Below are positions 35,051 to 35,159 of a DNA stretch of 64,000 nucleotides, in pieces. Under the pieces are notes generated by a model that saw nothing but the letters and a program-made list of their open reading frames with translations, did not search any database and was not told the origin of the DNA. Positions within the stretch are counted from its first letter, which is position 1. Every line of letters starts with the position of its first letter. The stretch lies in assembly GCF_003991155.1 (NCBI RefSeq), contig NZ_CP031293.1, one strand, 5' to 3'. This stretch comes from Escherichia coli. GTDB taxonomy: Bacteria > Pseudomonadota > Gammaproteobacteria > Enterobacterales > Enterobacteriaceae. The position numbers and the translations under genes are program-made.

Positions 35051-35057
35051 TGCGCAC

Positions 35058-35098
35058 AACAGCATTCCCGTATGGGAATGCTGTTTTCCGCCTGTTTT
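35058..35098 (+). terminator. strong hairpin with T-tract between the sinI-like and ratA-like genes (terminator or attenuator)
   Basis: AACAGCATTCCC-GTAT-GGGAATGCTGTT perfect 12-bp stem followed by TTCCGCCTGTTTT. Confidence 0.6.
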
Positions 35099-35159
35099 GC
35101 TTAGCGACGCGTTAAGCAAAACGGGTTGACGTTTTGTTTATCATGCTGGAGTTTTCTAC

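Follow-up and report, generated by a model that had tools for sequence, protein, structure and literature searches.

Introduction

Gene ratios within operons can be set by partial Rho-independent terminators located between the cistrons, for example those after papA and fimA in fimbrial operons. The iscRS element can give the mRNA segments on its two sides separate fates, and palindromes of the repetitive extragenic palindromic (REP)/bacterial interspersed mosaic element (BIME) type can stabilize the mRNA that lies upstream of them. The genes sinH, sinI, and ratA (the CS54/ila island) aid gut colonization by Salmonella and urinary-tract virulence of extraintestinal pathogenic Escherichia coli, and SinH is pursued as a vaccine antigen. 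The subject of this study is the junction between sinI and the giant ratA-like adhesin gene in a 64,000-nt stretch of E. coli DNA (contig NZ_CP031293.1 of assembly GCF_003991155.1; hereafter, “the window”). The spacer between the sinI stop codon and the ratA ATG is exactly 109 nt long (35051-35159), and it was found to specify two abutting hairpins, hairpin 1 (HP1) and hairpin 2 (HP2), that are conserved as sense-strand RNA. We consider it somewhat better than an even bet that HP1 serves both to protect a 3' end and, as a leaky intrinsic terminator, to reduce the transcription of ratA compared to that of sinH and sinI, with HP2 being a separate conserved helix.

Folding of the sinI-ratA spacer

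RNA folding, which the first-pass annotation of this DNA had proposed as a check, was carried out on 121 nt. The minimum free energy was -50.1 kcal/mol, compared to -28.8 +/- 3.5 kcal/mol for dinucleotide shuffles of the sequence (z = -6.16), and none of 200 shuffles folded as low. The perfect 12-bp stem that had been noted 7 bp after the sinI stop is present. It is formed by the arms AACAGCATTCCC (35058-35069) and GGGAATGCTGTT (35074-35085), begins 7 nt 3' of the stop codon, and is closed by a loop that reads GTAT in the DNA. The G+C-rich core of HP1 (35060-35083; 10 bp) accounted for -16.6 kcal/mol, and the pair probability of the hairpin was 0.999 with 50-140 nt of upstream context included. 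A T-rich run had also been reported after the stem; a TTTT does occur at 35084-35087, but the run is modest, as its first two T reside inside the stem and CCGCC comes next.

The second inverted repeat of the first-pass annotation (TGCTTA/TAAGCA) is likewise real, but it is not a 6-bp repeat; instead, it belongs to a helix of 16-20 bp. The arms of HP2 (35091-35106 and 35110-35125) are 16 nt each and, on the + strand, include two G·U pairs. In the consensus structure from RNAalifold, this helix was extended by the pairing of UUCCG, from the linker between the hairpins, with GUUGA on the 3' side. In the resulting duplex (35086-35130), a 4-bp extension that has one C·U mismatch adds to the 16 bp of the helix, for a total of ~20 bp. 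Extended in this way, HP2 adjoins HP1 (35058-35085) with zero unpaired bases between them.

Conservation of the two-hairpin layout

Loci with SinI homologs were obtained by a genome-collection scan, by exact-protein look-ups, and from E. coli records that included CFT073. From these, 21 distinct orthologous spacers were aligned using MAFFT. Across seven genera, 26 distinct spacers had the two-hairpin layout at this junction, with SinI ~40% identical between clades and the spacer length kept at ~100-120 nt. The carriers were Escherichia (three allele groups), E. whittamii, E. albertii, Salmonella enterica, S. bongori, Citrobacter, Pseudocitrobacter, Kluyvera, and Superficieibacter; weaker forms were found in Leminorella and Citrobacter R56. 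The layout has the order HP1, UUUUCCGC, HP2 with the core UUUGCUUAG...YUAAGCAAA, GUUGA, a Shine-Dalgarno sequence (SD), and ATG.

Standard pairs occupied 96.6% of the cells in the 21-spacer alignment, and changes on both sides were observed at 14 of the 29 pairs. No shuffle out of 500 matched the real alignment on any of four measures, and pairing fell to 38-49% when the 3' partner was slid by 1-3 columns. The same two-hairpin structure was recovered independently by RNAalifold. When 26 sequences were aligned to a covariance model built from the alignment, 16 of 29 pairs covaried, although an alignment fitted to the model in this manner leans toward the structure. Both helices are under purifying selection.

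The two hairpins differ in how they are conserved. For HP1, 99% of the cells were paired, compensatory changes were present at 7 of 10 pairs, and GNRA (GCAA) and UUCG tetraloops were found in several orthologs. HP2 is the best conserved part of the spacer. Its central 8 bp (UUUGCUUA/UAAGCAAA) are nearly invariant across the aligned spacers, and covariation, seen at 7 of 15 pairs, is located in the five basal pairs, which vary freely, and near the loop. The linker UUUUCCGC is also nearly invariant in the 21-spacer alignment. In the basal extension of HP2, one C-G pair is replaced by U-A in two loci (L156 and L157), a compensatory change, and a different 5-bp extension (UUGCG/CGCAA) is found in a third (L155). 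In Escherichia sp. MOD1-EC7003 (locus L019), an insertion of ~45 nt (5420-5465) separates HP1 from HP2, and UUCCGC remains with HP2.

The covariance model gave one match per locus. Weak matches, both on the + strand, were obtained for Citrobacter R56 (28 bits) and Leminorella (25 bits); there was no match elsewhere in the window, nor at the Salmonella ratA-ratB junction. Among 5426 complete E. coli genomes, 1731 had the module, at one locus per genome. A second “place” in each of these genomes was rejected as the same locus read on the minus strand. These results make it hard to credit that the module is a relic of a mobile or repeated element (REP/BIME or a miniature inverted-repeat transposable element) or a chance palindrome. 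REP/BIME insertions do occur at exactly this spot in two loci (L007 and L028, described below), but the module is found at a single site per genome and is syntenic in seven genera, with covariation. Moreover, a scan of a viral collection for the HP2 core (TTTGCTTAR-N3-12-YTAAGCAAA) returned more than 120 AT-rich palindromes that were unrelated, none of them with the flanks.

Several loci had features of their own. In Pseudocitrobacter vendiensis (L002), SinI is 97% identical to that of the window and the spacer is near-identical, which suggests that the locus moved between genera recently. On a contig assigned to a “Collinsella” metagenome-assembled genome (MAG; L005), the spacer has the same sequence as in E. 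coli CFT073, and a “Citrobacter” MAG (L020) matches the window without a difference across the spacer and SinI residues 246-330; both were probably mis-binned. The spacer of a Citrobacter amalonaticus locus (L031, 3476-3701) is ~226 nt long, with an HP1-like hairpin that has no U tract and no recognizable HP2; the ratA start may be mis-called there. Palindromes of the form GTTGGGTGA...CCCAAC, possibly REP-like, were located in the Salmonella ratA-ratB spacer (L023, 16678-16842) and in the region 3' of S. bongori ratA (L025, 17487-17700), in both cases without the two-hairpin module.

Strand of the structure and search for a promoter

In the whole alignment, G·U occupied 67 cells and A·C only 4, and pairing was 86.2% when the - strand was read, compared to the value given above for the + strand. 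Within HP2 alone, the counts were 37 G·U and 4 A·C. The covariance model scored the window at 89.6 bits on the + strand and at 32.7 bits on the - strand. The HP2 loop ranges in length from 3 to more than 20 nt (it is longer by 21 nt in E. albertii locus L016 and by 2 nt in L017), and the stem is retained throughout. Because G·U and A·C are so unequally represented, and because the HP2 loop varies while its stem is kept, the data point to RNA of the sense strand as the structured molecule, not to an operator in duplex DNA.

A DNA-level element, in which the palindromes would be transcription factor operators and TTGACG the -35 hexamer of an internal ratA promoter, was accordingly considered very improbable. 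The conserved sequence of the HP2 core does form an almost perfect palindrome (TTGCTTAR-N7-YTAAGCAA) of mostly constant spacing, and TTGAnn follows it in most orthologs, as would be expected of such an element. However, an excess of G·U over A·C has no meaning for duplex DNA, and neither the lengthened loops with retained stems nor the covarying basal stem of HP2 favors an operator.

The proposal in the first-pass annotation that ratA might be transcribed from its own promoter, by way of TTGACG, did not hold up. A promoter scan of 35051-35159 returned no promoter-like site. The hexamers located 16-18 bp downstream of TTGACG (GAGTTT, GGAGTT, and AGTTTT) are not -10-like and overlap the SD. In the orthologs, no -10 was found 16-18 bp after GUUGA, and a transcript started there would drop the conserved SD. 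TTGACG was therefore rejected as a -35, as it has no -10 partner and the transcript would start at or after the SD; the hexamer is instead a strand of the HP2 extension. The spacer thus has no -35/-10 pair 16-18 bp apart and upstream of the SD, as a sigma-70 promoter for ratA would have. Nothing convincing was found by eye in the spacer among look-alikes of sigma-54 promoters, PhoP boxes, RcsB boxes, and boxA/ops.

Terminator-like features of HP1

HP1 is a stable, G+C-rich, sense-strand stem-loop downstream of a stop codon, which is the stem required of an intrinsic terminator. The score d was calculated for it, and the canonical terminator between ratA and xseA (43265-43300) was used as the positive control. 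HP1 scored 25.5, compared to 24.9 for the control and 1.8 for HP2, and d was positive (13-37) for HP1 in 20 of 21 orthologs. Tracts of three to five U directly follow HP1 in 20 of the 21 aligned spacers; that of Leminorella is U5. At two distant sinH-sinI loci (L032, 3385-3477, and L154, 2391-2511), in which SinI is ~36% identical, a single canonical terminator-like hairpin follows sinI and there is no HP2. The downstream gene at both encodes a short Big_2 protein of 355-365 amino acids in place of the giant RatA, whereas HP2 is restricted to loci with a giant ratA of the BIg21 type downstream. From this distribution, HP2 would appear to be linked to genes of the giant ratA type.

Several considerations weigh against termination at HP1. 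The formula for d, a weighted-T/ΔG expression of the d'Aubenton Carafa 1990 type, was used in our own implementation. A simple terminator scan, which called for at least 5 T in 8 bases, listed neither HP1 nor HP2; the sequence after HP1, UUUUCCGC, has 4 U in 8, below this threshold, and its UUUU is short and is followed by CCGC. The last two U of the tract also serve the HP2 extension, so that their conservation is confounded. The tract has been lost in Citrobacter Res13 (L012), in which the downstream ratA frame is apparently intact. In Escherichia sp. E1V33 (L007, 4552-4842) and E. coli ESDR8 (L028, 2796-3090), a REP/BIME pair of ~180 nt has inserted in the 3' arm of HP1, with duplication of GGGAATGGT. 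The insertion parts the U tract from HP1, again with an apparently intact ratA frame, and leaves a complete copy of HP1 split from the U tract and HP2; the two loci are thus natural “U-tract deletion” variants. Because all three loci lack a U tract adjoining HP1 while their ratA frames appear intact, termination would seem to be dispensable. Finally, no transcript mapping, 3'-end data (Term-seq or 3' rapid amplification of cDNA ends), or expression data for the sinI-ratA junction were found in the literature. In favor of a terminator, a review (PMC12525524, citing Shea et al. 2022) describes co-transcription of sinH and sinI and makes no mention of ratA. As a separate observation on ESDR8, its sinH is also a pseudogene, adjoining ISKpn26.

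When these points are set against the anatomy of HP1, its covariation, and its control-like score, the terminator half of the earlier interpretation is plausible, and we hold it slightly likelier true than false. Termination would be incomplete: given that the spacer has no promoter and that ratA is conserved as an intact 8-kb gene, a leaky terminator fits. The further suggestion that ratA is expressed at a different level from sinH and sinI is, on the same anatomy, compensatory changes, and score, the most likely consequence.

Search for an attenuator

The first-pass annotation had offered attenuator control alongside termination. This part was not borne out, as no pairing that competes with HP1 was found. 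A regulated attenuator or antiterminator switch, in which termination at HP1 would hinge on an alternative fold, a protein, or a small molecule, is improbable, even though HP1 is a terminator-like hairpin within an operon and one alternative pairing (35113-35123 with 35130-35140) does exist. That pairing, the sole one found, was confined among the compared spacers to the window's allele group (it recurs in the near-identical P. vendiensis spacer). It also uses HP2, which lies downstream of HP1 and is transcribed later; HP2 would therefore be made after the termination decision and be without influence on it. HP1 kept its probability of 0.999 in every tested context, with no competing upstream helix. 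A scan of 33000-37000 against Rfam at E values up to 10, and a scan of the whole window at the gathering thresholds, gave no match at 35051-35159, and hence no riboswitch or leader family. Neither an antiterminator exclusive of HP1 nor a sensor, both of which define an attenuator, was found in the spacer.

Two further candidates were set aside. A nine-codon open reading frame (MLFSACFA*) starts at an ATG in the HP1 3' arm, but it is not preceded by an SD, and orthologs that have TTTCCGC do not keep the frame; a leader peptide for an attenuator is thus not conserved. An anti-SD arrangement, in which UUCCGC would pair with the ratA SD (GGUGGA) in several orthologs, was disfavored because folding prefers the HP2 extension.

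Proposed mechanism and the role of HP2

If HP1 is a leaky terminator, the spacer would be transcribed within the sinH-sinI-ratA mRNA and would fold into the two abutting sense-strand helices. HP1, acting as an intrinsic terminator of intermediate strength, would halt part of the polymerases ~35-40 nt past the sinI stop, and the stopped transcripts would constitute sinH-sinI mRNA with a 3' end shielded by HP1. The remaining polymerases would read through. As there is no promoter in the spacer, ratA would depend on this read-through, the only visible route to its transcription, and the 8-kb gene would be expressed at a lower, fixed ratio to sinH and sinI. A ribosome finishing sinI 7-9 nt upstream might hinder the formation of HP1, in which case read-through would be coupled to the translation of sinI.

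HP2 and its UUCCG/GUUGA extension would form only on read-through RNA, just 5' of the ratA ribosome-binding region. Its likeliest roles there would be those of a 5'-proximal stabilizing or processing helix, or of an insulator. Cleavage at the U-rich joint would leave the ratA mRNA with a 5' end fully paired by way of HP2, which may stabilize it. In addition, HP1 and HP2 together would leave no single-stranded RNA over 35058-35130, and the untranslated gap may in this way be closed to RNase E and Rho.

The same features could arise from a stability or processing element that involves no termination, to which we assign a real but clearly minor chance. RNase E would cut at the U-rich joint, or RNase III within HP2; HP1 would guard the 3' end of sinH-sinI and HP2 the 5' end of ratA, giving the two parts differing half-lives. 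The papBA and malEFG REP hairpins and the iscRS element are models for such behavior, and an intercistronic stability element of the iscRS type is located in the same window. The selection of both helices as + strand RNA, their abutment without an unpaired base, the conserved core and covarying base of HP2, and the retention of both hairpins in lineages that lack the U tract all agree with this explanation. The ~20 bp of extended HP2 is near two helical turns; with its one C·U mismatch, it is at the short end of what RNase III requires (about two turns of mostly uninterrupted double-stranded RNA). On the other hand, a U tract that is kept after HP1 in 20 of 21 spacers and canonical terminators in distant relatives are not needed for stability alone. 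The stability element is also compatible with a leaky terminator at HP1 rather than exclusive of it.

A more specific function for HP2 is doubtful. HP2, stacked with HP1, may be a cis-regulatory RNA that acts in a sequence-specific manner in the sinH-sinI-ratA adhesin islands of Enterobacteriaceae and has so far gone undescribed. If so, a protein (RNase III or some other that binds RNA) or a small RNA (sRNA) would recognize HP2 and set the amount of giant RatA compared to that of the putative SinH translocator, and the invariant UUUGCUUA/UAAGCAAA core would be the recognition surface, beyond plain structure. The core is altered in Citrobacter R56, in the L155 locus, and in Leminorella with the hairpin still there, and this weakens the case for sequence-specific recognition. 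To our knowledge, the module has no sRNA partner.

A processive antitermination RNA of the Put or EAR type, which would modify the polymerase to cross the 8 kb of ratA, was judged highly improbable. Two tandem conserved hairpins of ~75 nt, located within an operon and directly 5' of an unusually long gene, would suit such an RNA, as would a core sequence conserved beyond the needs of pairing. However, the U tract of HP1 would be superfluous for an antiterminator, no Rfam family was matched, and the module is absent from the ratA-ratB junction of Salmonella, where a giant gene follows as well.

Gene layout

In E. coli, the sinH-sinI-ratA locus corresponds to the CS54 island of Salmonella, for which the name ila cluster is also used (PMC12928451; PMC4943183). 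The sinH promoter is activated in an hns mutant or when LeuO is overproduced, the conditions applied to the iatB/sinH promoter in PMC6714894. The region 34700-35500 of the window is 100% identical in 800 of 5426 complete E. coli genomes, including FDAARGOS_497, and the RefSeq annotation of the locus in that genome was converted to window coordinates (Table 1). The annotated order is der, yfgJ, sinH, sinI, the ratA-like gene, and xseA, the last being convergent. RefSeq has no annotated feature at 35051-35159. An SD-like GGAG or GGUGG is located ~8-12 nt 5' of the ratA ATG in the orthologs. The A-tract/stem/T6 terminator used as the control is bidirectional and lies between the ratA stop (43233-43235) and xseA.

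Table 1. Features of the sinH-sinI-ratA locus in window coordinates.
Feature	Position	Strand	Basis
sinH, intimin-like inverse autotransporter, first gene of the operon	31828..34002	+	RefSeq annotation of identical locus
sinI, SinI family autotransporter-associated protein, 330 aa; stop TAA at 35048-35050	34058..35050	+	annotation; 121 homologs found
HP1, perfect 12-bp stem with GUAU tetraloop, terminator-like	35058..35085	+	sequence, folding, covariation
Linker UUUUCCGC, conserved; holds U tract (35084-35087); 35086-35090 is the 5' strand of the HP2 extension	35084..35091	+	
HP2, 16-bp A+U-rich helix, CCUGUUUUGCUUAGCG / CGUUAAGCAAAACGGG, ACG loop	35091..35125	+	folding, covariation, RNAalifold
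GUUGAC, 3' strand of the HP2 basal extension; overlaps most of TTGACG (35126-35131)	35125..35130	+	RNAalifold
ratA translation initiation region: variable A/U-rich spacer, SD GGAG (35148-35151), ATG at 35160	35131..35159	+	
ratA-like giant adhesin gene, 2691 aa, “adhesion domain-containing protein”	35160..43235	+	annotation
Canonical end-of-operon terminator (A-tract, stem, T6), shared with convergent xseA; control	43265..43300	+	

The 55-nt spacer between sinH and sinI (34003-34057) contains a nested hairpin (GATCAGC...GCTGATC within CAGCG...CGCTG; ~-16 kcal/mol), and a similar hairpin is found in Salmonella. The other gathering-level Rfam matches in the window were the iscRS stability element (5995-6104, +), the ryfA sRNA (13378-13682, -), and the sroE sRNA (26523-26614, +), all of which are ordinary K-12-type features.

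Relation to known elements

The two-helix module is a well-supported candidate cis-RNA, judged from its sequence conservation, and belongs to no Rfam family. It adds a motif (26 sequences, strong covariation, and a clear strand signal) to a locus that had none annotated. Its interest is modest and is chiefly for those who work on sinH or ratA expression; we regard it as ordinary operon punctuation, uncatalogued so far, that invokes no new principle. A leaky terminator at HP1 predicts that RatA would be sub-stoichiometric, being expressed via read-through, and the terminator together with the second helix would offer a mutable handle on the ratio of ratA to sinH and sinI.

By analogy, the module would work most like an intra-operon leaky terminator or an intercistronic stability hairpin. 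As in the terminators of the papA/fimA type, a G+C-rich tetraloop hairpin and a U tract are located on the sense strand just past a stop codon, and the downstream gene, with no promoter of its own in the spacer, would be dependent on read-through. Unlike those terminators, HP1 has a tract of only 4 U, followed by CCGC, and is fused without a linker to a longer conserved helix, and termination at it is predicted. The module resembles the iscRS element (RF01517; the copy at 5995-6104) in being a conserved structured RNA between cistrons, but it has neither sequence nor model similarity to it, as Rfam gave no match even at E = 10. Extended HP2 is an imperfect intercistronic duplex of ~20 bp with one internal mismatch, as are the RNase III helices (T7 R1.1 and the rnc and pnp leaders); this likeness is one of length and position, and HP2 is at the short end in length. 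Finally, REP/BIME sequences are also imperfect intergenic palindromes, whereas the sinI-ratA module is single-copy and syntenic rather than dispersed.
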